A stretch of 64,000 bases of DNA. Origin: Bispira polyomma (lineage: Eukaryota). The position numbers and the translations under genes were made by a program. The notes beneath the pieces are model-generated. The model did no database searches. It saw only the letters and a list, made by a program, of their open reading frames with translations, and was not told where the DNA came from. Position 1 is the first letter of the stretch; every line of letters begins with the position of its first letter. The stretch spans positions 69,812,001-69,876,000 of the forward strand of contig OZ287753.1 of the NCBI GenBank assembly GCA_965649765.1. Direction: 5' to 3'. Below are positions 13,573-40,700 of this stretch, piece after piece.

Positions 13573-13708
13573 TTATTTTTTGCCCAGCAGTTGCTTCCTC
13601 TGTTGTTCTAACAAGCCCTCCAGATGGTCAGCCCGTTTGACCGCTGCTTGGTGTTGTTGTCTCAGCTGTGTCACCACTTCCTCTTTCTTCGCTATGGCCT
13701 GCTTTACT
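13573..13708 (-). CDS. CEP131: CEP131 coding exon 23 (last)
   Basis: VKQAIAKKEEVVTQLRQQHQAAVKRADHLEGLLEQQRKQLLGKK*; AG acceptor at 13709-13710. Confidence 0.92.
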
Positions 13709-16700: not shown

Positions 16701-19700
16701 AACCTTTATAAAGCTAAGTTTACCTCATATAACCCCCTCCCCTTACCTTGGTATGGTTGTACTTCTCCATGGTCTGTCTCTCAGATCGCTCTAGTTCTGA
16801 CATCTCAGCTTCATACTTGTCACGGATACGTCTAGAGAAGTCAAAAACAACACAGTCAAAACCTTTCTAGTCACAAAAGACCAACAGAAGCATTAACACA
16901 AGATTTACCACCAAACTGATGAATGCATGTAATATTGAATAAAAATATAGAACCTTGATTATCTGAACTTCTATTATCCAAATATACGCTACACTACATA
17001 TTTCCACTCTTCCTAACGTTTTATCTTTTCTCATTCCTTTAATTTCTTTGTACAGCAAAATGCCTTGTTTATTTCATGATCTTATAATGGAGGTTCTACT
17101 GTACCTAAAGTAAATATTTAGTGCCAACTACAACAAAAACACAAGAATTTTATAAGCTGGCAGGTGATTTTTTCAACAAAATTGACACCTTAGATACAGA
17201 GAGACCAAATTCTAGACTTTTCGAGAGTGAAAATATGTTAAATATTCAAAAACAAAAGTTCAAATACTGTCTTAACAAACTCTTACTTGATGCGGTTGTC
17301 AGCAACCCGCTCACACTCATCTCGTGCATTCTGGTTGTCGGCTTCCAAGCGGTTTATCACTAACTCTATCTCTTTGTCTCGCTCTTTTCTCACTGAATCT
17401 TTTAGTTCACGTTCCTGAGGAATTGTAATTGTAATTAGACTTTTATATACTCCAAGGCGCAACAGCACAAAAGGAAAAAAAGTTCCTAAGGAATTGTAAT
17501 TGTAATTAAGACTTTTATAGACTCTAAGGCGCAACAGCATAAAAGAAAGTAACCCAATTTGCAATATCAAGGGAAAGAAAAGGGTCGAGCACCACAGAGC
17601 GCGCCGGCGGATGATTGAGACTAAGGTGGGTATGCCTTCGTGTACAAGTGGGTTTTAAGCTGCTTTCTAAAAAAGGCTAGTGAAGGGGAAGCACGAATCA
17701 CATCAGGAAGAGCATTCCAAACAACGGGAGCATCAAAAGCAAAGCTGTAACCAAATTGTTTAACTGACTTTTGAGTAGAAGGAACATATGAACATAAATG
17801 CTGTAATTAGAAAAACTCAACACCAGCAATTAATTTTAGCTAATTTTATTAGATAAGTTTTGATAGTAAAGATACATTTTTGGTGAAATATATATTTCTA
17901 TAACTTACCTAAATGACAAAATAGCAATTAGCAAAAATTAATTCCAGTGACTTCGATTAAGTTTTCATGTTTTTTTATTTTCCACTTATACTATCTCAAT
18001 ATTTACTACATTTTAAGTTTTATCTCATGAAGGTGTCTACTACATGTTTTTTCCAAAACTGTTCAAGATTATTTTTTTTAGCCAGACACTGATGAAAAAA
18101 CTGATGATACTGATGATACAGATGAAATTTTGCTTACCTTTGGTATGGGCCAGTGTGTGTGTAATTGACAAGATTAGCGGTGGAATAACTGTATTTGAAT
18201 TAAGGTGGGTTCAAATCACTTTTAATAGCTCACCATATCATATCACAACAGCCAAATTTAAAAGTGGAAGAAACCAGTGCTGAAGCACTATAAATCAGCC
18301 TCCTACGGCAAGTACCCAAAAAACTTTCAACACATAAATGAACAAATGGGATTTCAACCCACATTGAAAAGAGACGAGTGATTATTAGCACAAGCTTTTA
18401 ACAACTAGGCTACTACAGCCTCTGGCAGATAAGTGTGAAATCAGCCTACCTCCTGTATAGACCGGTGTGTTTAATGACTGTAATCCAGAGATAAGCGTAA
18501 GATCAGCCTAATTTCTGAACTGACCGGTGTTTAATGACTGTAATCCACAGATAAGCGTAAGATCAGCCTACCTTCTGAATGATCCGATGTTTAATGACTG
18601 TAATCCACAGATAAGCGTAAGATCACCCTACCTTCTGTATGGACCGGTGTTTAATGACTGTAATCCAGAGATAAGCGTAAGATCAGCCTACCTTCTGTAT
18701 GGACCAGGGTTTAATGACTGTAATCCACAGATAAGCATAAGCCTACCTTTTGTATTGACCAGGTGTCCTGTTTCTTCATGTAGTTCTCCTCCCAAGATGT
18801 CTTTTCCAGGGCAAGCTGCTCTTTTAACTGCTTGGTCTCAGCCTGTATACAACACACAAATAAGCTTTAACATACCCATAGCATCTCACATCCAAATACC
18901 AGAGACCTAAAATATAGTTTGAACATGCTGTCTTCCAAGTCACCAGATACACAAAACTATTAATTATCCAAATTACGGATTATCGAAATGTTTGATTTTA
19001 ATGAATACACTTTTGCTCTCTCAAATTTATATTTTCCTACTGATTTGCAATAAAATGCCTTAAAGGTTTTTTTTAACATTGTAAACCACTGGCCTTCAGC
19101 AAGTCTACTGCTGACTTTTCCAACATGCCACAGATGAGATAGGTGTGGAAAACTGCAGAGGTAGGAGGCGACTGATTTGCCCATCAACCTTCATCTTATC
19201 CTCTCTAAAACACCCTCTCACGTCGTGCTTTTTATCATCCCGGGCCTTTCGTATTCTCATCGCATGGCCCCCACGGAAATTTTTTTGGCTTTTTCTCCTG
19301 TTCTTCCCAGAGCCTTCTCATATTCCCTTCTCATGGCTTCTACCTTACTTCTAATCCTACCTTACTTCTCTTTCCTAATTCCCATCGCATGGCCTTCACT
19401 GAGTTTTGACCTTAACCCTAATTCCCGTCCTCTCTTCTCACCTCATGCCTTTTCTCCTGCTCTTCCCGAGCCTTCTCGTATTCCCTTCTCATGGCTTCCA
19501 CTGAGTTTCCGTGCTGGTCCTCTAGTTGGCGCTGTAGTCTGTCAAGCTCTGCTCTCTGCCGCGAGGCCGACGAGGCGATCCTGTCTTTCTCTTCCTGTAC
19601 CTCAGAGTACAGTCGCCGCCGCTGCTGTTGGTATGCTTCCTCTTCCTGCTGCACCTGCTTCTCATACCTGTAATGGCAAATAGAACCTCGAACTCTTCGA

Positions 19701-22700
19701 AAATCTTAGACGATGCGAAGCAATAACTGATTGACAGAAACAAATATAAACAAGTAGAGACACATGACTCCCGACGGCGGCCATATTGGAATATGCATTT
19801 TTGTTACCCAACTATGGGATACACTCACAACAAAAAATAAATAAATCCACCCAATACGTTCCAAGCTGTGCATGCCTAGGGACGGATGCAGGTATCTTAT
19901 AACCCCAGGATTTCTTTCGAAATCGTCCGGGGAGACAATAATAAACAAAAGACTTGTGCACACTTCCACGTGAACATTCAAAATCTGATAGTTTTACCGT
20001 ATCCACAGCATCACAATATTTTGTGGGCTAACATAACACAAAACATTTCATTAAAACTCCCTCAAAAGGTTATATCCTCTTTTCATGTACTCTTCTGCTA
20101 TTGTTGTATGCATCAGCATTTAGGCTAGTAACCAGATATTTTTTTCGGCGACTGTGTACAAAAGTACTGCTAACCTCCTGCAAAAACATTATCAGTAATT
20201 TTTGATGGCTGGCTTTTATTTGTATTATTAAATAGACTAATACAACACCTGGTTACCAGTGGCCAAAAGGTAATGTTTAAAAAGTGTTATTTCATTTTAA
20301 TAAATTCAGATACCTCCAAAATACAGCTTTCTATTTGTGTACCATATCTTATCAGTTTAGATAGCAGTTTCTTTTTTTCTGTAGATTGGTGGTTTACAGT
20401 GGCTTCAACACTAGTTACTCCCACGAATAAACCTGGCTGTCACGATATGACCAAAGCTGTTGAAAATGACGTAAAACCACAAAATTTGTCACTTTCAAAA
20501 GTATATTTTCAAAGGCCAGATACAGTGGTTGAAGAAACCAGTGCTATAGCACTGTAATCCACTCCGGCAAGTACTGGACAAGTTTCAGCACATAAAGTAA
20601 CAAACAGGATTCGAACCCACATTGGAGAGGGGCAGCGATTGTGAATACTTTTCTTTTGGAATCAAGGGTTTAAAAATGATGGTGGTCCCTTTCCAGTATA
20701 TTACAAAATACTGTTTACACCTTTTATATCATAACATGACACATTTGACACCATTTATCTCTCACCAAAATGTGTATTTATATTAACTGAGATTTCTATT
20801 TCAAAGATTATATTGGCATATCCATATGTAAAGCATCTTAACTGTAATGTTAAAAATATTTAGACCGGAAAGTGAAATTGACCGGAAACTGGTGTGTCAG
20901 TATTACAAAATTCGAAGACATCACTGGACCTAGGATGGTAACGTTCTAGTGGAAGAATGCAGTGCTGAAGCACTGTAAACCACTAACCTACGGTAAGTAC
21001 CTGACAAACTTTCCCCACACAAATCCAACCCACATCAGTGAGAGATCTGTGCCATTGTGCTTCTAATCACTAGAATTATAGTTGCCCTAATGACTTCAAC
21101 ATATGGACTTTTTTTTCGCAATTCAGGGTTTTACATACACAAAGTTTGATGACATCATTAGACCTACGTTTGTCTGGCGAGCTCCCTCTCTCTGACACAT
21201 GCCATCTCTTTCTCCTGAGCCAGCTGGTCTCTCAGCTCCTCTGTCATCTGGATGTACTTCTGGCCGGCCCTCTCATCAGACGCCAACAGCTCAGCCTCCT
21301 GGATGGACTTAAGCTTCTTCACCTCAGACTTGTGCTTGGCTATAAGTCTCTGGATCTCAGGCTCCAGACCTTTGACTGTGGTCTCCTGGGGAAATAGATA
21401 CCATGGAAACCCATCTTAAACAATTTGTACAGGATTTGACAGCTTAACTGTCACTCTGTCCTAAATTTATATTGTTTTTATTGTGCTACACTAAAATGCC
21501 ACTATTTGATGTTTGATGAACCTTCTATTATCCCAAAACAAAATCATGCTCTCCTTGCATGTTTGGATAACAGAGTCTATTGTACACGTTTGGATAATAG
21601 AGGGTCAACTGTACTTTTCTAGAATTTAAATTTAAACTTAGTTGGGTCTTGTATTGCTTGTAATAGTCTGTCAAATATCACACTACCCAATTAGTGAGTT
21701 AGACCCTGTAACTTGTACATTAACTCATCAGCTATCACACTTGTCAGATATCACACTACTCAATTAGCAAGTTAGACCCTGTAACTTTTACATTAACTCA
21801 TCAGCTATCACACTTGTCAGATATCACACTACTCAATTAGTCAGTTAAACCCTGTAACTTGTACATTAACTCATCAGCTATCACACTATCACACTATATT
21901 CAGTAAGACCCTATAACTTGTACATTTACTCCATCAGATATCAAATACCTTGATTTTTTTGGTTTTCTCCTCAATCCAACGCTCTCGCCGTAGTTTTTCT
22001 GCTGCTGCCTGCACTTCCTTAAGTTTGCGTAGTTCTATCTCATGGCTGAAGTGGTAAAAACAAATATTTAAACTGAGCAAATTAGATTATTATACTGCTG
22101 GCTAGGTGCACTGAAATGGTCTCACCTCATAAAGGAGAAAAATCAAAGACACTAGTCATGTACAAATTGGTTATTGTTCAGTCTGGGCCAATTGTACATT
22201 TAGAATGTTGAATGCCTCCCTAAGCTTTGCTGCAATAATAGTATAGATTTTATCACAGGAAATGAGTCAAAAGTATTTCTGTTTGTACACAGTGTTATAC
22301 ATATTTAATAAGTCTGGATTTTACAATCCATGTAAATAGAGTCAGTACATAGTATTTAAATTCAGTTGGCTTTTATGTCACATTTAACAGTTTAGGTCAT
22401 ATCACGATGGCCAGATTCAACAGTCGAAGAAACTAATGCTGAAGCCACAGCGTAAACCACCAATCTACAGCATGTACCTGACAAACTTTCCCTCATGAAG
22501 AAAATAGTGGAATTCAAACCATCATTAGTAAGAGGCCAGTGATGGTGAAGCTAACACGTCTGACCACTAGGCCAACACGGCCACTATCATCAGGGTGTAC
22601 CAGTGGGGACAGGACCCAAAAACAGAAAACTGTGATCTGAAATGGTCATCCAAGCCATTATGTATCTGTTTCCATCTAGGAGCCCGAGTCTAGGATTGAA

Positions 22701-25700
22701 GCGAGATTCCCTCTTGTTCCTAAGCAAGTACATTACCCCCACTGGACCATAGATGGCAGATACTGTCGTATTTCTAGCTATAATAAAGCCACACCACAGT
22801 AGTTTATTAACCTTTTCCTGTACTCACTTTTCCTGCATGGTTCTGATCTTGTCTGCGTATTTTCTGTCCACTTGCTTCAGCTCCTTCACAACGACCTCAC
22901 ATTTCTCACCAAGACTCTTTTTGTCATCGATTAGCTGTGAATGTACACAGATACAGAATACCTCACATAACACAGAACAAGAGAGAGTTGTACAAACTAC
23001 ACATGTACCAAAAATAATATTGATAGCATAATTTACAGACGACCGACATCATGAAATTACATCACATGAACTAAAAATAGGCCATAGTAATATCGCAGCC
23101 GCTGAATCCAAGTTTGTCAAAAGATACAACAAAACTAAAATATCTCTGTAACTCTCTTGGATGTGATAACCTCAAAGGCACATTTAGTTTTTGATTTGTA
23201 CAGGAACCACTTTTTTCTTTGCAAATATTTGAAAGGGAACTTTAAATTGTAGATCCCACTTCATTCAAAATACTAAAGTTGTGTCAATTCGATACAAGTG
23301 TGTATATCCCGGACATGTTATCAGTGACTACAAATATCCAATGAATGGTTAGCAGTACTTAGTTAGTGGGAGAACACGTCTCATAACTGAGTGCAGAGTG
23401 GTGTCACCCACAGTTAAAATCAAAATATTAATGGGCTAATTATTTGCTTGCATACATATACTTGAATCAATAATCACTTAGCTATTGATCTATTTCCATG
23501 TTGCAGCAAACCAAAAAAGTAGTTGATACTATGTGAAATGACCTCTGACGAACGACTCAAGGTCAAGGCACAAGGTCAATAATAGTGATATCAGTAATTT
23601 AGAGTTTTTAGGCTCCAAGTGACCTTGAAATCGAGCCACATCATCAAAAGTATATGACAATAAACTTAATCCCCAAATACATTTACAAGAAGTAGGCATA
23701 AATTGCATCAAATACTTTTTTTGAGTTAGACCTTGGGACATTGTAATTGTGCGGTGGCAGTGGTAGCACCACAATCCTGTCACACAAGTATCTCCCTGAC
23801 ACAATTGACGCATTGATACATATATTTTGTGTCATAAAAAACCTATTAAGATGCCATTCGAAATGTATTAAATCGGCACACCATTAAAATATATGTATTT
23901 TTTTTTACTCATGAAAATGTAAATATGTTATCCATAAATTGAGTTTAAGGTCACAAACGTGCAGTAGTACAAGTCCAAAGAAGCTCTTCCAATGCAATAG
24001 TATTTATTGCCGATTCATTTGTGTATTCACATTACTAGATCCGTAATAAAATGGATAACAATGTCCAACTAAACATGGCCATTGTTTGTATACAATACCT
24101 GATCTATAAAGGATAGGTGACGCTTTATTGTTTCCTCATATTCGTCTTTCTGAATATCCAGCCGCCGTTTCATTTCCTTCTCAGTCTCACGGGCATGTCT
24201 GACTGTCAGTTCTCTTTGTTGGTTCTGCATCAATTAAACAATAAAGTATATATATAATACCCCTGTAATTTTTTGTGAAACATATCAAAAGGAGAAATTT
24301 AGTGCAAACTCATCATTACAGCAATACATTGAATGCATTGGTTAAAACAAATCCACCTGCGACACTTGATGCTTTTCTCTCAACTGTGCAAGTACAGCTA
24401 ACCAGCACGAGTAATTCCCGTAACTGAAGATAGAGGCTTTAGAATGACCATTTATCAATATCTCAAATGTTCTTTCGACTGCCACTGGGGATAGGACCCA
24501 AATGACTGCAAGTACAGCCAACTGGCACCAGTACCTGTCACTCTCCTAACTAAAGAGAGGCTTGGTGATGACCATTTATCAACACACTAAGGTTCCCACT
24601 GGGGATAGGACCCAAATCACTGCAAGTACAGCCAACTAGCACCAGTACCTGTCACTCTCCTAACTAAAGAAAGGCTTGGTGATGACCATTTATCAACACC
24701 CTAAGGTTCCTACTGGGGATAGCTCCCAATGACAAGAGGACTGCCAGTTTAAGTGCCACGCCACTATGTTGCCACGCCATTATGTATCTGTCTGTACCTA
24801 GTTGCCCCCATGCTAGGATCAAACACAGGTCCTCTACATTCCTAAACAAATGTGTTACCCACTTGACCAGGGTGGCAGATAATATTCAGTCAGATTTGAC
24901 TGAACTACTCTTTAGACAGAGATGTGGATGCCACAGATTTAAGCTAAAGATTATCCCACAAAATAGCCATAGGAGTTGAAAACACAAAAGTATTGATGCT
25001 TTAACCAACTCTTGACAGCTTTTATATTTTGATGCTAATGTTAAGTCATGTTAATAATGTTTTATTTCTTTAAGACCACAATCCATGACCAGACATCCTC
25101 TATGGTGCCCAACTCCGTCAATATGCAAAAAAAAAGTCTGATAGGTGGAAAGGTTCATGATCAGAATTCAGTCGTAAGGGAGACTATTCTAGTCAGCAAG
25201 TGATGTAGCTTTAAATGATTTTGAACCTGCTAGTTCTTTTAGGTAAGGCGGCAGTGGTGGAGAAACAATTTCCTTTGGTGAGATCGCTGAGCGATAACAT
25301 AGGTGACAAGTAGGCTGGCTGCTGCACATGAACAGTCTTAAAAATAATAACATTAATTTGGAAATTTTTTACAAAACTATACTTGATATCAAACCGTAAC
25401 ATTTTATCAGATTTGCGCAGTTTTGCAAATCGTACCCACTCTGTCATCGGTGGCTACCAAAAGCCACAAAACGACGACAGTACACTTGGTTTAAAGACGT
25501 ACCAATGCCTTCTGCAGAATGCCCACTGTCCTCTTCTTCTCCTCAAGCTGCATCTTCTGGGTGAGAACCGTACTAGTCACCTGTGGATAAAATTGTAAAC
25601 CAGTTCTTGGTTTGTTTATTAACAGAAACCAACAATTGGTTAGATATCTTTTAACGTGAGTTTTTAGTTTGGAAATTAATTTATCTAGAATTTTACCTGC

Positions 25701-28700
25701 CATAAACTTAACATGTTCAACAATCTGTGAACTTGGGTTTTAATTTTTTCCAAACATTGCTCTAATTTTTTTAAACTTGTTAATAACCGTTTGTCGGCTG
25801 GTTTTATAAATTTACACGTTACGGAAAATCTCAACCAACTGCAGCCCTAGGATAAATCATATACAGACACAGCTTGTATATAAAAACATAGGCAATATTT
25901 GATGATTTGCGATACTTAATTTATCATTGAAACATGTCTTTTTGTGTATAAGAATCTAAAATTTGCTACTGCTTTAAGGTATAGTATAATTATATCTGTA
26001 TTTATTATGGAAGTGAAATTTACAAAGTTTTTCCTTTCTGTTTCTTCACTGACATTTAAAAAATATTTGTTATGCATATTTTCTTCTCTACATAATACAC
26101 ATGATGTGGGTGAAATTCGGGTAAATCAATACAAAGATAAACTAGAAATATGTCTCACGACAAAATATGCCCTCATCAGTTTATATATAGGGCACTAGTG
26201 TTAACTCTTAGACAAATGAGGGTTAATAAGGATGTGAAATATGGAAACAAATATATGATGATACAGTCAAACCCCTTTAAGTACAACTCTGTTAACTCAA
26301 TTTCCCTTTTAATGCAAACAAATTTTATAGTCCCAAAAATGCCGTTTTTATTAAAATCTACCCTGTTAAGTGGAAATCCTGCTGAAGTAGAAGTATTTTA
26401 CAGGTCCCTTAAGGTTCGACTTAAAGGGGTTCAATTGTATTACACAAAAGGTTATACTATTACTATTAGTATGGATATGAGAATAAAAAGGTATAATAAA
26501 CCGATAATAAACAAAGCATTGCCACATTCCTCTATCCCATGTCCATTTCGAGACTAAGTTCAAAGTCACAGCAAATTTTCAAAATGTTTTCTCGATGTTC
26601 AAACATTGCCTAGTCTATGGTGTGTTTGAATGCTTGGTGAAGTTTCAGAACCTAGCGTATTCCTAAATTGGACAAAATAGGTGAGTGTTAGCCACATTTC
26701 CCTATTCTGTGTCTATCCACACATTAATGTCAAAGTAACTAGTTAGAATACTTGGTAAAAAGTACCAAAACTGTGCGAGTACTTAAAGTCAGGATGAGTA
26801 TTCTGAATATATTCAGTGTGTGTGTGCAAGTGCTCGAGCGCATACTTTTGCACCCTTTCAACCCTACTTTTTTAATAATGGTATATTATGTTAATGATGT
26901 TTTAACATGCAAATATTTGCTTACCTCTTATTTTTAAATGAATATTTGAACTCGTTAATGCAGAATACAAAGGATTTTGGTTCCAAGATACCCTTTAAGT
27001 TATGAATTTGAAGTTTGTTGGGGTTTTACATCACTTTAAACAACTTAGGTCATATCGCAATGGCCAGAAAGATTCAATGGTGGAAGAAACTGATGCTGAA
27101 GTACTATACACCACTAACCTACAGCAAGTACCTCATAAATTTTCCACATGAAGGAATGAATAAGATTCGAACCCACAGTAGCAGGAAACCAGTGATTGTC
27201 AAAGCAGGCGCTTCTAGCCACTAGGCAACCACAGCCACCAATACACATTTAGATTAAATTACTCTTACTTTAACACCTAGATTAATACCCCTACACCCAC
27301 TTTGTTACCTCTGCGGCATATGCCGATGCCTGTTCTAGTTCTGCCAGTTCCTCACCAGATGGCAGTAGCAGGGCAGGTTTGTCTAAAGCATCGTTAGCGT
27401 GAGTTAGTTCCTGCACCACACACACATTACACAAGAAAGTGACGATTGTCAGGTTAGAATAAAATCAGGGCTGGTATTCCCAAAATAAACTTGTGCTTAA
27501 ACTCATACTCAACTCAAATATAGGCAATAATGTGTTGATTCTTGTACATGAAAATAAGCCATACTTGTGACCATTCATTTAATAGAGATTTCAACACTGA
27601 ATTAAAATATGAAGTCAGATTTTAAATATGTTTACCATATCCAGAGTAATACAGAATCCAAATTTGAGTTAAGTAGGAGTTTAAGCTGAGTATACATTCA
27701 AGAATACAGTTCCAGGTTCACAAAATTAAACAATATGTACAGAAATATAGAAACAAATTCATGTGCAGTGGAACCTCTATTATCCAAACATCTACAATCT
27801 AAATATTCACTCTCCCAAATTTACATTTTTCCTATGGTTTAAAAATACTAAAATGCCTCTTCTGTTTATAAATCTTTAATTATCTGAAAGAAATCATGGT
27901 CGCCCCAGCCTGTTTGGAAAACAGATGTTTCACTGTAAATGTATAAACAATTGCAAACTTGACAAGCAGAGGGCTCAAATTAGAATGCACTAACAAAGAT
28001 AAACATGTTAAGTGTACAATTGAAGCTCTATTATTCAAATTTCTATCAACCGAACATTCGATTTTATCAACTTATTCTACTCTCCTAAGATTATGTTATT
28101 TCACTGTTTTATGCACAAATGCAACTTCTAGTTCTATTGAGTAAAAAAATCATGTTTCTACCAACATGTTCGGATAATAAAGGGTCTACTGTATTTAAAG
28201 CAGCCAATCAAGGCAGCAAGAACTGTGAAATAAAGTGTTGATAGAAGAACAAGATGGCCAAGAAATAACACAGATCCCCTTGATTACTACTTGTTTCTGA
28301 AGGGTTCAAATGGTTATGCATGGTCTTATCGTTTCGACAGTATCTGAGAATCAGGAACAGTTTTTGAAACTAAGATATCACAAGTTCAAATTTTCGGTAA
28401 AAAACAAATTTCAACATAATAAAGTGCTGATATATACCTAAATTTAACTATTTTTTATGATTTCGACAGTATAACTTCATATCTAAGTGTAAGATGAGGA
28501 AAAAGTTACAATTATAATCTATGTAATTATTTATATTTTTCCTAGGTGACAATGTGTTTGCGGGCACATACTAAAATTCAGCCAATAGGATGTAAAATAA
28601 ATATGATCCTGTCACAAAGCACAGACTCGATGATTGCAAAATTTGTCACAGTCGACTGATGCATCAATCTCTCAATTAATCATCGCAGCTTTAATTATTA

Positions 28701-31700
28701 TCATATGTTACACGTGTTAAATCACAAACAAAACAGGTCAAATACTATTACCACTGTACATCAATACTGCAACAAAAACATGTAGAAACAATGGCATATT
28801 ACTTAGTGTTGGTTGAACAGGATTAAAAGGTTTATGTGCAGGTTAATATCACAGATGTTAGTCTGCATCTATGTACAAAAGCCAAGTTCTGGGTTTGTGT
28901 AAACAGAAAGCCTATCCACATCACAAAGGGAGCGGTTAGTGCTCCCTTAGTCGAAACAATTCTACCTCCGCAGCATTTGCTGATGCTTGTTCAAGGTGTG
29001 CTAGTTCCTCCCCAGATGGCAGCAATAGTGCAGGATTGGTCAATGCGTCATTGGCCTCGCTCAGCTATATATATACATAGGGAGATTTTACAGATTACTC
29101 AAGGTGAGTAGACAAGCTACATCAACATACATATACAATTGTATGAACTATCTATAAGCAGAGTAGAGCAGAATAACATTCCAATGAGAATTTGTTCCTG
29201 AGATATAATCGAGATAAGTTAAGGAATGGATCATAACGTCTAGGTAAAGCCTCATTGTTGAGTCAATGTATCCTTCCTCAAAGTCAAACCATCTTGAACC
29301 AATAGCATCAGGTATGCCGAAATCCAATAGCATTTGGGGCGAAATAGTCCAACAATGAATAATTGAACGGGTAATCATCTGAATTTCCTACTGTATTTCT
29401 GTTAAAAAATCTAGGTAGGTGCATAAACATATAAACTGGAAATATATATGCTCAGGATGCCGTGGATCTACAGCCTCTAACAATATGGTGACATAATTTG
29501 AATTTCCTGTGGGAAGTAATTACTGAGATATAGTCCTTGAAGGATTCTTAGCGTCAACCACATTACTCCAAGGTCAAAAGAAGGTCAGACCATGATTTGG
29601 CATATGTACATGCCCTAACAAATATTTTAACCCCCAAAAGTGACGATCCAGAATAAGAATTAGTTTCTAAGATAATAATTCAGACAAGATTTTAAAGGAA
29701 TGGGTCATAACTTCAAAGTCAAAAGTCAAATTAAGGTCAAAACAACCTATCACACGTCTCTCACCAGCACACTCACCCGGTCACTCGACCGACATAGTCA
29801 CTCACCTGGTCAATATGACCGAATCTCACACGGTTACTCACCTGGTCAATCTGACTGAGTCACTTACCTGGTTACTCAATCAATCACTTTAGTTCTCACT
29901 TAGACTCTAGTGCGCACTCAATACTTTACTCACTCACTCACACCTGGTCACTGACCTGGTCAATTATACTGAATCTCTCATTCGGTCAGAGACCTGGTCA
30001 ACCTGACTGAGTCTCTCATTCAGTCACTCACCTGGTCAATCTGACTGAGGCTCTCATTCGGTCAATCACCTGGTCAATCTGACTGAGTCTCACATTAGGT
30101 CACTCACCTGGTCAATCTGAATGACTCTCATTCGGTCACTCACCTGGTCAATCTGACTGAGTCTCTCTGCAGTCTCCACCTCGTCCAGGTAAGTGATGAT
30201 GTTCTTCATCTTCTCATCAATCAGGACTCCACTCCTGGCCAGGTTGTCCTTGTCTAACCTCTCCAGCTTTTCAGACGTCAGGTAGGCGTCCTTGTCCTCT
30301 GACTCGGTCTTCTCAAGATCATCCACTGACATATATAAAACAATGACATAGACACATACACACAATATTACATCACAGTTCATATTATCCAAGACTTATA
30401 ACTTCAGAATGTACGTTCATGTAATCTTGAATTATTCAGTTTAGGTTTCAACAGCTTAGGTCAAATCGTCAGATTTAATGGTGGGAGAAATCAGTGCTGT
30501 AAACCACTGATATGTAGCAAGTAGACACACTCCAGATATTTCAGTTGAGAAAAGTTGAAAAACATTGCTTTGGAAATCACTACAGTAAAATTGCAGGTGT
30601 GACCTCTTATTATGCGAACATGTTGGTAGAACAAGATTATATTCAGATAGAAGAATTTGAATTTTGAATTTGGATATTTAACGTCCATTCTAGTACCTAC
30701 TCTAGTAGGTTATATTGGGACGGGTAGTTGCAAACGCTGGAGGAAACACTGCATACAGTCGGTCAAGGTTCTGCAGAGAAACCAGCGGCCCACAGTAAGG
30801 ACCTACCACCTTTCCCACATAGGCATCGAGGGGATTCGAACTCACGCCACCCAGAGGTGAGAGACCAGTGATTGTGAAGAGCAATGCTTGCTAACCACTA
30901 GGCCACCGCGGCCTCATGCAGATAGAAGAGGGTTCATAAAATAGATGAGGCATTTTGGTATAAACCCACAGGAAAATATTATTACTGGAATTAAATTCAA
31001 CTATTTGGATAATAGATGGTATACTGCAATACTGTAAAACCTCTGTTATCCAAATATGCTGAGATGAGAGAGATTTTGTTCGGATGATAAAAGGTTCATG
31101 AAACATAAAATGTTATTTTAGTATAAAACAATAAGAAAAGAATAATTTTTATAAAATAATTCATAAAATTTAATATTTGGATAATAATAATAATTTGGAT
31201 AACAGAGGTTCTAATGCAAAAATGTGTCTGGACGCCAGATTTCTGTCTCCATTTACTCACACCATGCCAGTGGTTTCTGGTTCCTGTTTGCGGCTTCCCG
31301 TGCTGAGAACTTCACCAAGGTGTCTTCCTCCTCTAGTTTCTTTAGTGTGGCCATCAGGTCGTCTATAGTGGTCTTTGTGCCCGTCTGACTGGACGCTGCA
31401 GGCGACCCCAGCTGAGGACGGCCAGACTCTACTACATCTCGGCTAGATGAAGGGGGCTGCTGCTGTTCTTCTGTCGGACTATCGCTATGGTAACCGTTGA
31501 CTTTGGGCTGTGATTCCTGTATGAATAGATTACGGTCAGCATTTGAGTTTACTAGAATAGCAACAGTAGAACCTCATTTATCCAAACTTAAAAATTAATT
31601 TTTCTGGAACAATCAATCTCTCATCTTTATATTTTCCTATAGTTTTACATCAAAATTCCTTTTTTATTTGATGAACATTCTATAACCCTACTTACCCACC

Positions 31701-34700
31701 AATTTCAGATACCAGATGTTCTGTGGCCGAAAAATCTGACTCAAGGTAAATTTATAAAGTCCAAATGTCTATTGCTAGGTTTAAAATAAGTGAAATCTGA
31801 CTGTAGATTTGATTTCAGTGCTGAAAGCTCTATTAAAATGAATGGTCACAAGTGTAGGTTATCTCAATATACAAGGACTTACCACATAGCATTCATTTGA
31901 ATTGAGACTGAGCTGGAGTTTCTTTAGCGAATATGGGCTCTGGTATACTTGGAATGTACAAGAGAACATTTACTTATTTTGCATTTTAATTTTTTTTCTC
32001 TTTCTTTAGTTAGGGGAATGAAAGTCACTGGTTAGGCGTACCAGAAAGGAAAGGATTAATTTGAACTTTGAATACCAGATAAAGGTATTTTAAATTTGAA
32101 TACAATATAGTCACCATTTTTACTATTTTTACAGTACAGTGTCCACTCACCAAGAGTTGTCCCCCTTTATTCCTTGGAGTATGTCTACTACTAGTGGCAG
32201 GACTTGGTCTCTGTGGAGACTCGTCACTGTCTGTGTCCCGCCGACAAGGCTTCTTGGCGTTACCTAAAATCATTGCTCGCTATTAGCATGGTTTTTCTCA
32301 CTGTAAACAACAGAAACTAGAGTACTGCTTTGCAAATGAAAGGAAATTGTTTTTGCAGAGCAAAAACAAAGCGTCCCAATAAGACATTGAGCAATTTTCT
32401 GCATATACCCTCCGAGCCCAAAATTCTGCCGAAATTGCTCTATCTGGCACCGTTTCCGAGATAAACGCAGAAATTCAAGTTGGCGGCCAAAAATGGGGAG
32501 AGAGCGATTTTTTTTATAAAAAAAAAAAAAAAAAATTCCAAAAAAAAAAAATTGACTTTTTTGAAAATTTCAAGTTTTTAAAAAAACATTTTGAAAATGT
32601 CAAAATTTGTCACCGTTTCTGAGATATTAAGGATTTTTTATTTCCTTTGTTGAGATTGAGGACTTTTTCAAAATTATAACTTTTTCAAAATTTTTATACC
32701 CTGTGGGCCCAAAATTCAGCCGAAATCACTCTATCTCTCACCGTTTCCGAGATATTAAGGATTTTTCGTTTTCTTTGTTAAGATGGAGGACTTCTTGCAA
32801 AAAAAAAAAATTTTAACATTTTTAAAAAAATTTTATACCCTGTGGGCCCAAAATTCAGCCGAAATCACTCTATCTCTCACCGTTTCTGAGATATTAAGGA
32901 TTTTTCATTTCCTTTGTTGAGTTTGAGGACTTTTGCAAAAATTTGAAAATTTTAACATTTTTAAAAAATTTTTATACCCTGTGGGCCCAAAATCCAGCCG
33001 AAATCACTCTACCTCGCACCGTTTCCGAGATATTAAGGAATTTTCGTTTTCTTTGTTAAGATGGAGGACTTTTGCAAAAAAAAAATTTTTAACATTTTTA
33101 AAAATTTTTTATACCCTTTGGGCCCAAAATTCAGCCCAAATCACTCTATCTCTCACCGTTTCTGAGATATTAAGGATTTTTCATTGCCTTTGTTAAGATT
33201 GAGGACTTTTGCAAAATTTTAACATTTTTAAAAAAATTTTATACCCTGTGGGCCCAAAATTCAGCCTAAATTACTCTGTCTCGCACCGTTTCTGAGATAT
33301 TAAAGATTTTTCATTTCTTTGTTGAGATTGAGGACTTTTGCAAAATTTTGAAAATTTTAACATTTTTAAAAAATATTATACCCTGTGGGCCCAAAATTCA
33401 GCCGAAATCACTCTATCTCGCACCGTTTCCGAGATATTAAGGATTTTTCATTTCCTTTGTTGAGATTGAGGACTTTTGCAAAAATTTGAAAAATTTTTTT
33501 TAAAAATATTTTATACCCTTTGGGCCCAAAATTCAGCCGAAATCACTCTATCTCGCACCGTTTCCGAGATATTAAGGATTTTTCATTTCCTTTGTTGAGA
33601 TTGAGGACTTTTGCAAAAATTTGAAAAATTTTTTTTAAAAATATTTTATACCCTTTGGGCCCAAAATTCAGCCGAAATCACTCTATCTCTCACTGTTTCG
33701 GAGATATTAAGGATTTTTCATTTCCTTTGTTGAGATTGAGGACTTTTGCAAAAATTTGAAAATTTTAACATTTTAAAAAAATTTTGGATACCCTGTGGGC
33801 CCAAAATTTTTGACATTTTTTTAATTTTTGGGCAAGCTGCTGAGTTTTAAATACACTGAGTATGCCCTCTGGGTCCAAAATTCAGCCGATATTAAGGATT
33901 TTCTTTGTTCTTTGTATTTTATTTTTAAAATTTAAAATTTTTAAAAATTTTTTACATTTTTAGACAAGTTGCTGAGTTTTCAGTATACTGAGTATACCCT
34001 TCAGGCCCAAAATTCAGCCGAAATCGCTCTATCTCGCACCGTTTCCGAGATATTAAGGATTTTTCATTTTCTTTGTTTCGAAAAATCGTAATGTTTAATT
34101 AATCGTTAATAAGTCGGCTATTTTGTATCGGATCACTTATCAAAGTTATCTAGTTCCGGACATCTATATAAGAAACCTACTTGTCAAATTTCGTGAGAAT
34201 AGGTACGGCGCTTTTTAAGTTATCATCCGGACAAGCACACCCTTTAAAAAACGTGTTTTGGGTCATGTGACTTCTCTGATTGGTCGAAATGTATTGACAC
34301 TATATTCAAAATTTTTTCCCAGGGCTACTGCATACATGTGCCAAATCTGAAGAGAATCCGCCCAGTGGTTGCTGAGCTATAGTCAATAGAAAAGGCGGCC
34401 CCTTCCGCGTGAATTGTCTCCTGTATACAAAACAAGGAAAATTTTTTTAGTCACGCATTTTCAATTGGCTGTAACTCAGCAACCACTGGATGGATTCTCT
34501 TCCAATTTGGCACATGTATCCAGTAGACCTTGGGCAAATTTTCAATACAGTGTCATTACATTTCGACCAATCAAATAAGTCTTATGACCAAAAATGCGTA
34601 AATTTACCTCCTATATACAAACAAGCGCCCTTATGGGATGCTTAATAACTAATTAATTCTACTGCTAGAATTCGATCCTGGGTTGTCATGGATCTTGAGA

Positions 34701-37700
34701 TTAATAGTCCAGTACACTAACAGTTGAGCTATAGGGCAAACCCCTGAAACCGAGTGTTAAATGTGTTGATCTACATTGATATTATATCACGAAAAATCTA
34801 GAATACAGCAAAACCTCCATATGGTGAACACTTAGCAGATGAAGCTAAAGTGTTACACATGTGCCATACAGGACCAGGAAAACGTGCTTGTTATGGAGAG
34901 GTATTTACTATTTATAAGTGATCACTATATCAGAGGATTTATTATACATTTGAACCCATTTAAGTCAAACCTCTTGCAATCAGGGGAAATATCTCTACTT
35001 AAACAGGATTTCCACTAAACAGGAAAGAATGTTTTTACAGGAAAAGGCGTTCATGGAACTACATTATTTCCTTTACACAAGAGGAAAATTGACTTAACAG
35101 AGTTCTACTTACAGGGTTTTCACTGTATGTTTGACAGGTTATATTTCAGCTATTTTCCGGGCATCACAACTTTGTTCAGATAACAAGAGGAGAATGGCCT
35201 GGCGGCCATATCATGATAATGCCACAACAAAGCAAGTAGTCTGAAAATAGTGACCCAGTCACTAGTTAGCAGTCGAAATTGACAAGGACAGTCGCTACAG
35301 GGTCGGTCTTCAGTGGGCTATAATACAAATTTAAAGATCAGAGAATGCTGTTTACGTTTTCGTCCTCATTTTATTTTTTCTAAATCCCCTAGCTAGGTTT
35401 GCTAGCAGCACTAGTGTCTATTAACAGGAAGCGTACGATAACAGGACGTTTGACGATAACAAATTCTATTGACCAACTTTCATGACCAAATCCGACTACG
35501 TGTTAATAGTCTTGTAGATGCGTGAGTTTTAACCATTTCTTTATGGGCTTATTTGACATTGAAAAGGATCGTTCTTGACAAAAATTGGAGCTGTATTTTA
35601 ATCTAGAGTTGTTAAATTATTATATCGAATATTATTTTGTAATGTAAGATATATAAATCACATGTAGTTATTGAAGAAAACAGCAAATATTGAATTTACA
35701 AGACCCTCGAATCAACAATACCGAATAAATATTAGAAAGATCAGAGAATTTTGCTTACGTTTTTGTCCTCATTTAATTTTTTTTTTCTAAATCCCAAAAT
35801 AAGAGAGCTGGTGTCCGTTAACAGGAAGCGTCTGCTAACTGGATTGTTTGAAGTTCATTTTAAAATCTTGCTTTTGAAAGTCATCTCGAGAGGAAATCCC
35901 CACTTTTTATATCATATATGTGTGCGTTATAGCAGTTAGAATGAAGTAGATAATATATATACTTCAAAATCAGTAAATAAGAAGCTTAAAACAAACAAAA
36001 CCATTTGTGATTATTGAAGTAATATATTATTAAATTTTTAGGATCCAACTGTCAATGTTTTAGTTTGAATCTTCTATTTTCAAAGACGGACATCTTTTGT
36101 AGCTGTTTCCGGAAATGATCAAAGAAAATGTCTCGATCGTTAGAAGGTTCCAGCAACTTTTTTGGGAGTATAAATTAAGAAAATGTATTGATCACATCAC
36201 TGCGCATGCGCAGAAGTTCACGTGACCTTACTACGTTTTTTCTACTCCCATTCACAAAAACTATCCATGAATGAACCAGCTGATGAGATCGTTCTAGAAA
36301 CCGAGAAACCGGAAATAGGCGGTGATAAACCCTCCAATCAAAGCTCACAATCCCTAAACAGAAAATGGATATTTCTGACTTATTTCTAGCTATATTAACA
36401 TCAAATTAAGAATGGACCGTCACTGAAACAGATTTCATATGTATGCCAAATATGAAAGCTGTAATCCTTGTGAGTTCTGAGATTACCCTGTCGACATAAA
36501 ATAACCATGGTTACCTTCTTTTTTTTCCACTATACCCCCCCCCCCCCCCCCACACCACTTCCCCCTCTTTCCATAGGAAAGCACGATTATGCCAATAAGC
36601 ATTGGCATAATCATGCAATAAAAGGATAATAAAAGGTTCATAGTATAGTAGAACCATTTTGGTATGAAATAATAGGAAAATGTAAATGGGGTAGAGTGTC
36701 TTCGTAAGATTGATTAATAGAAGTTTGGTCAAATAAGGTTCTAATGTACTTTTAAAAGTCTCTAATGGATACCTTTTTTGTCATTGCAAGTAAAATAAGA
36801 AGAAGATCTTTTGAGTTTGACTACACTTATGTAAATGCATTTTAATACATTTGCATATCTATTTGACAATACGACAGTAAAAATGTAAAATCAGTAAAAA
36901 CGGGTGTGCTATAGATTTTGGTATAAACAAATTTTAGTGCTCTCAGCACCTGATTAAAACCAACTTCTTATAAAATCTTCTTGCAAAATCTTATAACCTG
37001 TGTCAACATTGTCATGCTATACCTTTCTTCTTGCTAGCTCCACCACTGGACTTGTAAGAGGGCTGCTTCCCAACCTTGCCCGTTGCTTGCAAGAATTTAA
37101 TCTCCTCTTCTGCAAGACGTTTGTTTTCTAGGCGTTTCTCTTCTCGTTTCCGTTGGAGCTCCTGAATTCAACCAATAACAAACATCCATCAATGTTGATT
37201 TGCATAAACACAAGAGCTATCAATAACTAAGCACTTTTGATTTAAATTGGTCCTGGATTAGTGTGAAAACATTAAAACTTATTTTACATTGGTTTTATCA
37301 GTAAAAATACAACTACTTTCTATTAAATATACCTTATTTTTAAAAAACACATTATAATTCACGATTTCTTTGCTTATCAGTAAGGCTATTCATCTGTGCA
37401 TATCTGTATGACTTCCTGTCTGGCTCCCTCTACTCACCTGTATGACTCCCTTTACTCACCTGTATGACTCCCTCTACTTACTAGCATGGCTCCCTCTACT
37501 TACTAGTATGGCTCCCTCTACTCACTAGTATGGCTCCCTCTACTCACTAGTATGGCTCCCTCTACTTATGGCTCCCTCTACTTACTAGTATGGCTCCCTC
37601 TACTTACCAGAATGGCTCCCTCTACTCACCAGTATGGCTACCTCTACTAACCTGTATGGCTCCCTCTACTTACTAGTATGGCTCCATCTACTCACTAGTC

Positions 37701-40700
37701 TGGCTCCCTGTACTAACCTGTATGGCTCCCTCTACTAACCTGTATGGCTCCCCCTACTAACCTATATGGCTCCGCTTATTTACTAGTATTGCTCCCTCTA
37801 CTTACTAGTATGGCTCCGTCCACCAACCTGTATGGCTCCCTCTACTGACCTGTTTGGCTCCCTCTACTTGCCAGTATGGATCCCTCTACTTACTAGTATG
37901 GCTCCCTCTACTAACCTGTATGGCTCCCTCTAGTCACCTGTTTGGCTTCCTCTACTCACCTGTTTGGCTCCCTATACTCACCAGTATGGCTCTCTCTACT
38001 CACTAGTATGGCTCCCTCTATTTACTAGTATGGCTCCCTCTATTTACTAGTATGGCTCCCTCTACTCACCAGTATGGCCCCCTGTATTTACCAGTATGGC
38101 TCCCTCTACTAACCTGTATAGCATCCTGTCTGGCTGCCCGTGCTCTATCTTCCCTCACTCTTCGTCTCTGTTCCTCTACATCTATACTTTCTGCCACTTG
38201 CCGTTGTCTCCCCTCTTCAAACTCTTGCTTCTTATTCCCTAACATACGCTTCAAGGCGGCTTCCCCAGCCTTAGATCGACAGCAGTGTCTTCTAAATAGC
38301 ATACAACTAGTATTTAAGTATCTTTCTGTGTATGATTTGTATCTGTGATAGACAAGTCTCTATAAATATGATTTAAAACTTGTAATTGACTTTATTTTCT
38401 GTATATGGTTTATGGCAACTATTTAATATAGCTATTTTTGTAACCTACTGCTTTATTTTAAGATGTCTGAATCGGGTACTCAAGACACCAACCTAAGCAA
38501 AAATGCTTAACAAATATACAGTGTTATCCCCTCAAAAAATTTCCAAATGTTGCAATATTTTGATTCACATCCTCTTAAAGTTTACAACAAACCTGTTAAC
38601 ACATTAGCAAACAATATTTTTGTGTGTGCTATAAGTTTGTCTTTATTCATTCGTTGAGTTCCACTTAACCACAACAAATTAGCCCATATGAGAAATAGCC
38701 CATGTATGTTTCAAATGCTGACAGTAAAACTAGTGTATTATTATTTTTACCATGGTATTTTTAAAACTGTGTGGATAAACCCTTTGTTTTATAGTAAATG
38801 GAACATTGGTGAAACTTATAGTTAAATAAGTGTAAGACTAGTTGTGTGTGGGACTATAGGAACGATTTATGGTAGGCAGGAGATAGGTAAAAACCTTTAT
38901 CAGCCATACACTGTACTGTGCACAAGTGTAAACAAACATGTCAACCCCAGTAACAAGTAAAGTGAGGAAATTCGAGGAAGTAGACAAAAGCCCAGTGGCC
39001 AATTACATCTCCAGTGAAATGTTGTCCTTAATCAATACTTCCATAAAGAAAGCAGTTGACACTCTTAAAGAGGAAATTAAGGAATCAAATCATGACATTA
39101 TAGAGCCCCTCAGTAAACGGTTTGATAAACTAGAACAGGGTGTTTTCATTCAGTCCGTGAAGACCTTATCTAAACAGGTAGAATCCTTACAAAAAGAAAA
39201 TACTGACTTACGAAGAAGACTTCTCAAAAACGAAACCCACCAAAGAAAAAATAACCTCCATTTCTTTGGCATCCAAGAAAGTGCGCAAGAATATTGTGAA
39301 GGCATTCTCGTTAACTTGCTGAAACCCTTGATAAATTGTGTAAATGACAGAACATTCGAAAGGGTTCACAGAGTAGGACCGAAAATTCCAGGAAAAACAA
39401 GACCCATTCTAGCAAAAGTGCACCATTTTAAAGATAAGATAAAAATCACAAGCCTGCGCAACTTACAGTACAATGGAAGTAGGGTAACCACAGCAGATGA
39501 CTTTCCACTAGAACCAGATCAGAATAGAAGGCGTCTGTATCCCATATACAGAGCTGCACTGAAGCACCTACAGAACCCCTCAAACCCCAGACATAGACCT
39601 AACGTTAAATTAGTCGGGGATCTCCTGATACTTAATAGAGAAAAATTCACAGTTGAGGACATTGGGAAACTCCCATCTGTTCTTCAACCCGCTTCAATCT
39701 GCACGCCGTCTCAAAATCAAATCACAGCTTTCTTTGGTCGTGATAGCCCACTTTCAAACCACCACCCATGTAAGTTTAAAGTGAACGGCGAATTATTTAA
39801 CTGTATTGAACAATATCTGATGATAGAAAAGGCCAGAGTATTTGACGACCAAGAATCAGTGACCTTATTAGTACAGGAGCAAGACCCAGTTAAGCAGAAA
39901 AGACTAGGAAAACAGATACATGGATATAATGAGGGAGTGTGGTTGGAAAGGTCTGAAGAAATAGCATATAAAGGTTTGAAATCCAAATTCACCCAAAACG
40001 ATGCACTAGCAAAAGCACTTTTAAAACAGGAAGCACTGTTATCGCAGAGGCTAGCCCAACCGATAACTTTTGGGGATGTGGGTTCTCACTTCGAGACTCT
40101 GAACTGTGGGACCAGGCTAAATGGAAAGGCAAAAACATTATGAGGAAATTACTTATGAGAATTAGGGAGGAAATTAAAACCAACTAGACCTTTTACACTC
40201 ACAGAAAAAACTCTTTGAATAACTGATATGACAATAATGGTATTTATATATGTATAATGTATTTATGATAAACTAAAATTTATTATTTAAAAGTCTCCTT
40301 TTAATGTTAGATTATATATAATCCCAAAGGTGTGTATCACAAATGTAGACTCAATACAAATTATATAATGTATCTTTAAATGTGTAGATTTAATTAGACT
40401 AAAGCCTCTGTCCATTCTCCCACCTTGCAGACCTTTACTATCAACCCTAAAAGGGGTCAAATACACAGACTCCCTATGGTTATATATTTTTTATACAAAT
40501 CCCCAAGAACAAATCTCAATGGAAAGTGGGTTGCAAATACCAATAGGTTTTCTTTGTGTCACCCAATACACAAACAAGTACACATTTAATGATATTAAAA
40601 GTCACAGTGTGACTTTTTTGCACTTTTGGCAGTGTGTTTTGTGTGTTTTTAGTCTAGTTTGTAGGATATGCTGATGCATGTTTTATTCTTTCAAAAAGTA

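Follow-up and report, generated by a model that had tools for sequence, protein, structure and literature searches.

Tandem arrays at the splice junctions of CEP131

Why do tandem repeats of unrelated sequence lie again and again at the splice junctions of one gene, CEP131? A sequence-only reading of the window, i.e. the whole stretch of 64,000 nucleotides analysed here, had listed seven such duplications in this gene and had proposed either a junction-focused mutational process or a selective filter as their cause. Splice-aware alignment to homologs yielded a model of 23 exons, which with exon 10a gives a 1229-aa open frame. The exon numbering of that reading is the same as that of the model, and its estimate of about 33 kb of intron agrees with the computed sum of 33,036 bp. 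The joins of exons 12 and 13 and of exons 15 and 16 are present in spliced contigs of a related organism. A candidate donor of exon 4 at 46161 was dropped owing to an internal stop, and 46203 was taken instead. In a run of the related organism, exon 10a has depth and exon 10b has none, missing coverage being uninformative. Intron 6 contains an unrelated 135-bp array that is repeated at many loci, as is typical of a dispersed satellite. The features of the locus are:

13573..50400, minus strand: coding span of the host gene CEP131, 23 exons plus a duplicated exon 10 (homologs, splice-aware alignment)
37415..38129, minus strand: exon 5 donor mirage, 22-bp unit in about 32 copies; real donor after 38114
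29946..30167, minus strand: exon 9 donor mirage, 38-bp unit in about 6 copies; real donor after 30144
29800..29868, minus strand: decayed, detached extra copies of the exon 9 donor unit
22811..22836, minus strand: 'tiny' repeat at the exon 13 donor, at chance level and left out of the counts
21669..21942, minus strand: 73-bp array adjoining the exon 14 donor, with no splice-site copy inside
19216..19406, minus strand: three decayed copies of the exon 16 3' end (19406-19348, 19343-19288 and 19277-19216); real donor after 19442
18426..18763, minus strand: exon 17 donor mirage, 60-bp unit in 5 copies (55-60 bp, the first 55); real donor after 18747
17411..17545, minus strand: exon 18 acceptor mirage, 71-72-bp unit in 1.9 copies; real acceptor before 17414

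Five of the seven duplications, with units of 22-72 bp, do span their junctions, namely those at the donors of exons 5, 9, 16 and 17 and at the acceptor of exon 18. The exon 14 array merely abuts its donor, from which it is separated by 6 nt (by motif) or 17 nt (by detector). The exon 13 repeat consists of one 8-9-mer at 14-nt spacing and missed the p<0.06 cutoff of the shuffle test; a contig of the related organism leaves this exon at 22828. Each exon 5 unit comprises 6 exonic and 16 intronic nt, and within the array 26 decoy donors score over 5 bits, 8 of them higher than the real one. The first unit at exon 9 is 36 bp long, in frame and free of stops. The exon 16 copies, although decayed, score 89, 61 and 46 in local alignments, compared with a maximum of 40 in 500 shuffles. 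At exon 18 the unit carries only about 4-6 exonic nt, and its decoy AG lies 71 nt upstream of the real acceptor.

These arrays are 'mirage' minisatellites, a known type of repeat; Canestro et al. 2002 are reportedly the source for the mirage minisatellites of amphioxus. When the arrays of exons 9, 14 and 17 were searched against the genome, only self-matches were found by a search that passes over very common words, so that they do not behave as dispersed mobile satellites. The real splice sites of exons 9, 13 and 18 fit spliced contigs of the related organism, which may itself lack the arrays. By an ungapped detector, 5 of the 46 CEP131 junctions are spanned or abutted. As had been claimed, chance would rarely bring this about (interior expectation 2.8%, p=0.009, for a window chosen post hoc). 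The framing as a peculiarity of one gene was wrong, because CEP131 sits at the sample average: 128 of 1130 junctions in other genes (11.3%) are likewise spanned or abutted (p=0.61, no difference). The locus is thus an ordinary example.

Excess of junction arrays in other genes

Our sample comprised 565 homology-defined introns from 66 genes besides CEP131, belonging to four gene families and 70% dynein, and it covers the junctions that are conserved enough to align. Intron-interior pseudo-junctions served as the control. Arrays span 57 of the 565 donors (10.1%) and 50 of the 565 acceptors (8.8%), versus 2.0% and 2.2% of the respective pseudo-junctions. The enrichment that the sequence-only reading had predicted outside CEP131 is therefore real, and amounts to 4.6-fold over the interior (3.4-6.0, gene bootstrap); of all arrays in these introns, roughly 40% are of the junction type. 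By class, arrays span 5/94 junctions in ligand-gated channels, 80/794 in dyneins, 18/210 in myosins and 4/32 in CCT, which contributes 16 introns only; this breakdown is underpowered for a dependence on expression. The rate varies between genes from 0 to 25% of junctions (p=5e-4). We found no reason for this spread, and no link to interior array density.

The enrichment holds under detector, motif, GC and transposon controls. It is 5.3-fold at donors and 3.6-fold at acceptors with TRF alone, and 5.2- and 4.0-fold at high-margin junctions. Pseudo-sites placed at strong intronic GT or AG motifs are spanned in 1.9% and 0.8% of cases, respectively. For 537 introns, the GC-matched expectation is 12.7 donors and 13.7 acceptors (observed, 54 and 48), and the non-transposon background is 2.2-2.4%. 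In the same 537 introns, the ends of arrays are most enriched 15-30 nt into the exon (10-fold at donors, 7-fold at acceptors), and the excess drops to 0.7-1.4-fold at 30-100 nt into the intron.

Template, decay and decoy sites

Of 95 arrays, 93 are matched better by a probe of genomic exon plus intron and two by a spliced probe, the latter by a margin of 1-2 points. Since the copies follow the genomic junction, spliced cDNA was not the template. This disposes of RNA-templated repair at exon ends from a spliced template, one of the mechanisms suggested earlier; moreover, the unit ends do not coincide with the splice sites. Nor is the unit a spliced exon-exon junction, as would be required for intron gain by tandem exonic duplication. 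It is thus extremely unlikely that spliced mRNA or a lariat served as the source of the arrays, or that they are relics of such intron gain, with only the two marginal arrays in favour; an unspliced pre-mRNA template remains compatible with the data.

At codon positions 1-2 the copies show a mismatch of 0.07-0.08 to the real exon, and at position 3 one of 0.15-0.17, a pattern that a conserved exon with drifting copies should produce. That the arrays are artefacts of assembly, the proposed refutation, is next to inconceivable in view of this codon-position pattern and of the roughly 10% difference between copies. Furthermore, each of three runs, from two samples, yields one 2025-nt contig that crosses the exon 9 array, the one tested, with 0 differences and flat depth, although these runs are possibly the source of the assembly itself.

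The copies mostly decay like neutral DNA. Polarity of decay is weak (31 negative and 19 positive of 51, p=0.12), and the distal copy alone is clearly more decayed. In 106 arrays, CEP131 included, GT is kept in 315 of 348 donor copies and AG in 124 of 130 acceptor copies. Mismatch at the decoy GT and AG (0.047 and 0.027) is below that at codon positions 1-2, which strict neutrality would not predict. Copy number changes readily: in three myosin paralogs (about 95-99% identical) a 53-bp donor array has approximately 12, 24 and 17 copies. Three pairwise paralog comparisons revealed 40 length differences, with copy-number changes but no clear birth of a new array.

Origin of the excess

Mirages are best explained, and we lean somewhat towards this view, as local genomic duplications across splice sites that likely arise, and above all are re-amplified, more readily near the exon edge and are then filtered. 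DNA within about 30 nt of the edge would be copied by slippage or template switching, and selection would subsequently retain only expansions on the intron side that do not disable the real site. Splicing would use the first donor and the last acceptor, the decoys would decay neutrally, and mis-spliced RNA, if any, would be removed by nonsense-mediated decay. As to the trigger, one may guess at stalling of replication or repair at exon edges due to co-transcriptional splicing or nucleosome boundaries. The spread between genes counts against this explanation.

The data show signs of a selective filter. Wholly exonic arrays number 0 in 414 exons (73 kb). Mirage donors are stronger (10.0 versus 8.8 bits, p=0.003), and acceptor units are longer than donor units (median 71 versus 52 nt) and present in fewer copies (3 versus 5). 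The filter proposed earlier thus accounts for the direction of growth and the intact frames. However, it is insufficient for the excess, because filtering removes arrays and can only bring counts under the level of the intron background. A bias in births is not established, since young two-copy tandems, the cleanest proxy for birth, are enriched only 2.0-fold at donors (3 versus 1.5, p=0.19) and 3.0-fold at acceptors (4 versus 1.3, p=0.045). Compared with these values, the 10.6-fold enrichment of donor arrays with at least four copies suggests that arrays at exon edges are amplified preferentially or persist longer. Judging from the excess, repeats are likely to form or expand preferentially at exon edges. 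It is possible, if doubtful, that splice junctions in animal genomes of this type are the target of an undescribed mutational process, with a probable link to co-transcriptional splicing, by which about one in ten exon edges has been duplicated and amplified.

Other explanations have to be weighed against this re-amplification near the exon edge. Duplications might begin anywhere in exonic DNA, with only the junction-crossing ones surviving and the splice site as a bystander. The near-equal rates at donors and acceptors, the exonic breakpoints, which range over 1-60 nt with no fixed point, and the lack of an excess at strong splice-like motifs within introns (85 interior arrays showed none either) would fit such an exon-wide hot zone. 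Yet wholly intronic arrays that begin 5-30 nt from the junction are enriched 2.3-2.4-fold as well, and most of the excess persists after GC matching, so that we regard this scenario as unlikely. Its candidate causes would be repair nicks at methylated CpG, recombination from conserved homology, and exon nucleosomes; the mirage rate is unrelated to exon CpG o/e over 25 genes (rho 0.24, p=0.25). Retention alone, in which births are uniform and junction arrays outlast the others because no deletion may remove the exon and selection opposes collapse onto a mutated copy, would be consistent with the weak enrichment of two-copy tandems. When collapse protection is built into a toy random walk, enrichment reaches 1.3-, 2- and 3.8-fold at exonic fractions of 0.25, 0.5 and 0.75, and donor enrichment indeed climbs with exonic fraction up to 0.75. 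Mostly intronic units, however, exceed the ceilings of 1.1 and 1.6 (acceptors 4.6- and 8.6-fold, donors 2.7- and 5.3-fold), and the loss of the excess past 30 nt is more abrupt than protection from large deletions would allow. Intron-only identity of multi-copy arrays is equal at junctions (0.908, n=72) and in the interior (0.893, n=36; p=0.69), i.e. interior arrays are not younger. We therefore consider retention alone quite improbable.

Functional decoys, maintained because they serve as reserve or alternative splice sites or soak up spliceosomes, would be in line with the retained GT and AG and their low mismatch, and the first decoy of exon 9 would add 12 in-frame residues. Against this stands that 85 of 88 first decoys would cause a frameshift or add a stop, and only three an open in-frame product. 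Unit lengths are not enriched in multiples of three (21/86), and among these in-frame units 17 of 21 contain a stop (13.5 expected), the depletion of stop-free units being not significant. Copy number is free to vary among paralogs, and the contigs of the related organism mentioned above use the first exon 9 donor and the real exon 18 acceptor. Such a function is accordingly very unlikely.

Relation to known repeats and implications

Repeats of this type have been described before in lancelets and a few human genes; added here is the measured excess at about one in ten exon edges, 4-5 times chance, of which no published quantification was found in the literature searched. In the excerpts of the reports covered here, amphioxus mirages occur in Adh3, the globins BflGb6 and BflGb9, troponin C and PGBD5 (PMC3087553, PMC3902484). 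As in our sample, the exon-intron boundary lies inside the tandem copies at donors and acceptors, units measure about 10-160 bp, many GT/AG are kept and several arrays occur per gene (PMC3087553, PMC3902484). They are also length-unstable with more diverged edge units (PMC3087553, PMC3902484), the length change being seen here in the myosin paralogs. According to these excerpts, the amphioxus reports are at gene level and call the mechanism unclear, whereas here about 10% of junctions in an animal that is lophotrochozoan-like, judging by its best homologs, are affected, at 4.6-fold enrichment; normal splicing was demonstrated there by RT-PCR, while here the real sites fit contigs of a related organism only.

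The accessible part of PMC1557585 lists human VNTRs that span exon and intron, i.e. F7 IVS7 (37 bp), CBS IVS13, 6-16, lamin B2 and PDGF. In these, too, the first monomer lies across the donor and is repeated into the intron, and the most upstream donor is dominant, but they are single loci at donors rather than at donors and acceptors of many genes (PMC1557585). Silent decoys thus have precedent in the parts available (PMC1557585, PMC3087553, PMC3902484). In the 6-16 and CBS arrays, however, neighbouring pseudo-sites are partly used (PMC1557585), which counts against the silent-decoy part of our preferred explanation. Internal tandem repeats at exon-intron boundaries of primate segmental duplications (PMC2812944) and intron creation by duplication (PMC3265369) are, in the passages available, similar in their position at exon-intron borders and their variability between recent paralogs. 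Those repeats build new introns from exonic repeats, whereas the units described here hold intron sequence beside existing introns.

A repeat type known from anecdote and unexplained in origin thereby becomes a measurable mutational or retention bias. For studying how the spliceosome disregards identical or stronger sites nearby, the arrays offer hundreds of natural test cases, and gene prediction in such genomes is liable to false exons. If a junction-targeted process is indeed at work, it would rank among the main sources of intronic minisatellites and continually furnish decoy splice sites, duplicated exons and new introns.

CEP131 gene model and setting

The 1.035-Gb genome is assembled in 75 contigs, and the window lies on contig C6. 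Its host gene CEP131, on the minus strand, was resolved by tblastn, a listing of splice sites and a splice-aware aligner into 23 exons (e1, e2 and so on) plus a duplicated exon 10. The open frame has 1229 amino acids. A translated exon matches CEP131 proteins, the named top matches being nemertean, annelid, bryozoan and mollusc, which makes the animal probably a lophotrochozoan. Introns total 33,036 bp. Contigs of a related organism join e12-e13 and e15-e16; they also start precisely at the e9 donor, and their coverage of e18 comes within one base of the acceptor. These contigs are spliced, though the run label reads 'DNA?'. Other features of the gene are:

28966-29064 and 27309-27410, minus strand: tandem duplicate of exon 10 (99 and 102 nt)
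about 38930-45600, plus strand: broken LINE-like retrotransposon in intron 4, opposite to the gene
32610-34021: 135-bp array in intron 6, part of a dispersed element built around a tandem core
24482-24729: tandem of two 114-bp units within intron 11, not linked to a junction (257 nt to the e12 acceptor)

Both exon 10 copies are open, of phase 0-0 and about three-quarters identical in DNA. Homologs align to one or both; transcripts may use the two as mutually exclusive exons or include them together. A NADAR domain (E=1.7e-20) closes the first frame of the LINE-like element; the reverse transcriptase and zf-RVT frames that come after it are fragmented. The dispersed element recurs, 90-94% identical, at dozens of loci and bears no relation to splice sites.

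Junction arrays in CEP131

Arrays detected by TRF and an ungapped repeat detector span three donors (e5, e9 and e17) and the e18 acceptor, and gapped alignment revealed three decayed copies of the e16 end (scores 89, 61 and 46 against a shuffle maximum of 40). When all 46 junctions were compared with shuffled sequence, each of these five gave p=0.005; the signals at the e5 acceptor (p=0.015) and at the e19 donor (p=0.05) were weak and stay outside the tally. The sequence-only reading had counted at least six or seven such junctions. Five of these stand, whereas the e14 array starts 6 nt inside the intron without a donor copy and the e13 repeat was absent among the shuffle-test positives. The e9 array is bridged with 0 differences by one contig per run in three runs from two samples, which may be the assembly's own source.

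The CEP131 arrays are real repeats of a known kind. The amphioxus 'mirage' minisatellites (PMC3087553, PMC3902484), whose unit spans an exon-intron boundary with extra copies in the intron, have the same structure, and the VNTRs of human F7, CBS, 6-16, lamin B2 and PDGF (PMC1557585) are of the same structural type. PMC2812944 describes the creation of introns by boundary repeats. Splicing-associated repeats are catalogued in PMC10078293, with no test of junction-spanning enrichment in the passages covered. Our literature search, beyond whose reach most subscription papers lay, found neither a genome-scale measure of junction excess nor a lophotrochozoan report.

Junction enrichment beyond the window

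Dynein heavy chain, myosin, CCT and ligand-gated channel loci were found by Pfam search, and about 2 Mb of sequence was taken. Introns were set by alignment to homologous proteins, independently of repeats, using generic splice-site frequencies as aligner weights; from e5 onward, those CEP131 junctions that the aligner called agree with the ones set by hand. At least one intron was accepted in 66 of 79 gene regions, for a total of 639 kb in 565 introns. The tally omits the intronless reference loci, one CCT paralog and two near-identical myosin paralogs. A cluster of intronless nicotinic-receptor-like genes lies on contig C3 of this genome (G000; about 80.8-81.0 Mb, L143 and L144); other family members mostly contain introns.

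A junction was scored as spanned when an array began within the last 60 exonic nt and extended into the intron, and control pseudo-junctions were spaced every 10 nt across intron interiors. Arrays span 57/565 donors and 50/565 acceptors; for the corresponding pseudo-junctions the shares are 2.0% and 2.2%. The junction enrichment is thus borne out outside CEP131, with a 4.6-fold excess (3.4-6.0, gene-level bootstrap) in 565 introns of 66 gene regions. With TRF alone it is 5.3-fold at donors (46/565) and 3.6-fold at acceptors (34/565). The excess persists under three other score thresholds, in 414 high-margin introns and when the control positions are strong GT or AG sites inside introns. In the first 537 introns it also persists when the background is matched for GC, excludes transposons or is taken near junctions. 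The interior control is conservative, as 17 of 146 interior arrays look like a flanking exon edge.

The notion that the phenomenon is peculiar to one gene does not hold: 5/46 CEP131 junctions are spanned or abutted versus 128/1130 in the sample (p=0.61), so the locus is ordinary. Among paralogous dynein genes, the share of mirage junctions runs from 0-2% (D8, D14, D3) to 17-20% (D7, D13, D4, D6); neither CpG o/e nor the density of interior arrays tracks this share.

Anatomy of junction arrays

Array ends peak 15-30 nt within the exon and fall to background more than 30 nt into the intron; arrays beginning 5-30 nt into the intron are enriched 2.3-2.4-fold. For 93 of 95 arrays the unit matches the genomic junction. 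The median donor array holds 5 copies of a 52-nt unit and the median acceptor array 3 copies of a 71-nt unit, whose roughly 50 intronic nt would suffice for a pyrimidine tract and branch point of its own. None of 414 internal exons holds a wholly exonic array, and unit lengths show no bias toward multiples of three. Mismatch between copies and exon is 7-8% at codon positions 1-2 and 15-17% at position 3, which indicates that changes in the conserved exon account for about half of the divergence and that the arrays are not very young. The first decoy splice site would give a frameshift or stop in 85/88 cases.

Many two-copy junction duplications among 107 arrays (L001-L202) are X-spacer-X rather than perfect tandems (17 at acceptors versus 3.0 expected), a form that could stem either from decay where the unit is unconstrained or from templated insertion.

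Origin of the junction excess

The sequence-only reading had offered a selective filter as one source of the arrays. Selection may shape survivors, but uniform birth followed by a filter can yield at most the interior rate and, on this reasoning, cannot by itself produce a 4.6-fold excess. If interior arrays were lost by deletion while junction arrays were retained, interior arrays should be younger and the gradient gradual; neither was found. Protection of junction arrays against collapse may contribute, yet in a toy model its ceiling is about 1/(1-f), f being the exonic fraction of the unit, far under the observed folds at low f. Young two-copy tandems are enriched just 2-3-fold, on very small counts, whereas donor arrays with at least four copies are enriched 10.6-fold. 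Given this pattern and the shortfalls of the rivals, we favour, at slightly better than even confidence, a DNA-level duplication, and above all a re-amplification, that would act preferentially at exon edges, while selection shapes which arrays survive. The trigger may be the splice site or the whole exon. Decoy GT and AG mismatch at raw rates of 0.047 and 0.027, versus 0.068 and 0.081 at codon positions 1-2; this retention speaks against strict neutrality.

Recent segmental duplicates comprise regions L090-L092 and L183-L188 (C11, C8, C13) and L140/L192 versus L189/L193 (C1); the three myosin copies are about 95-99% identical and the two CCT copies about 97%. The commonest length difference among the three myosin paralogs is a copy-number change in existing arrays, junctional as well as interior. 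The recent myosin and CCT duplicates are a useful internal clock for repeat turnover. The junction excess, measured here and set against controls, is useful in its own right, and with it the question of origin becomes testable.
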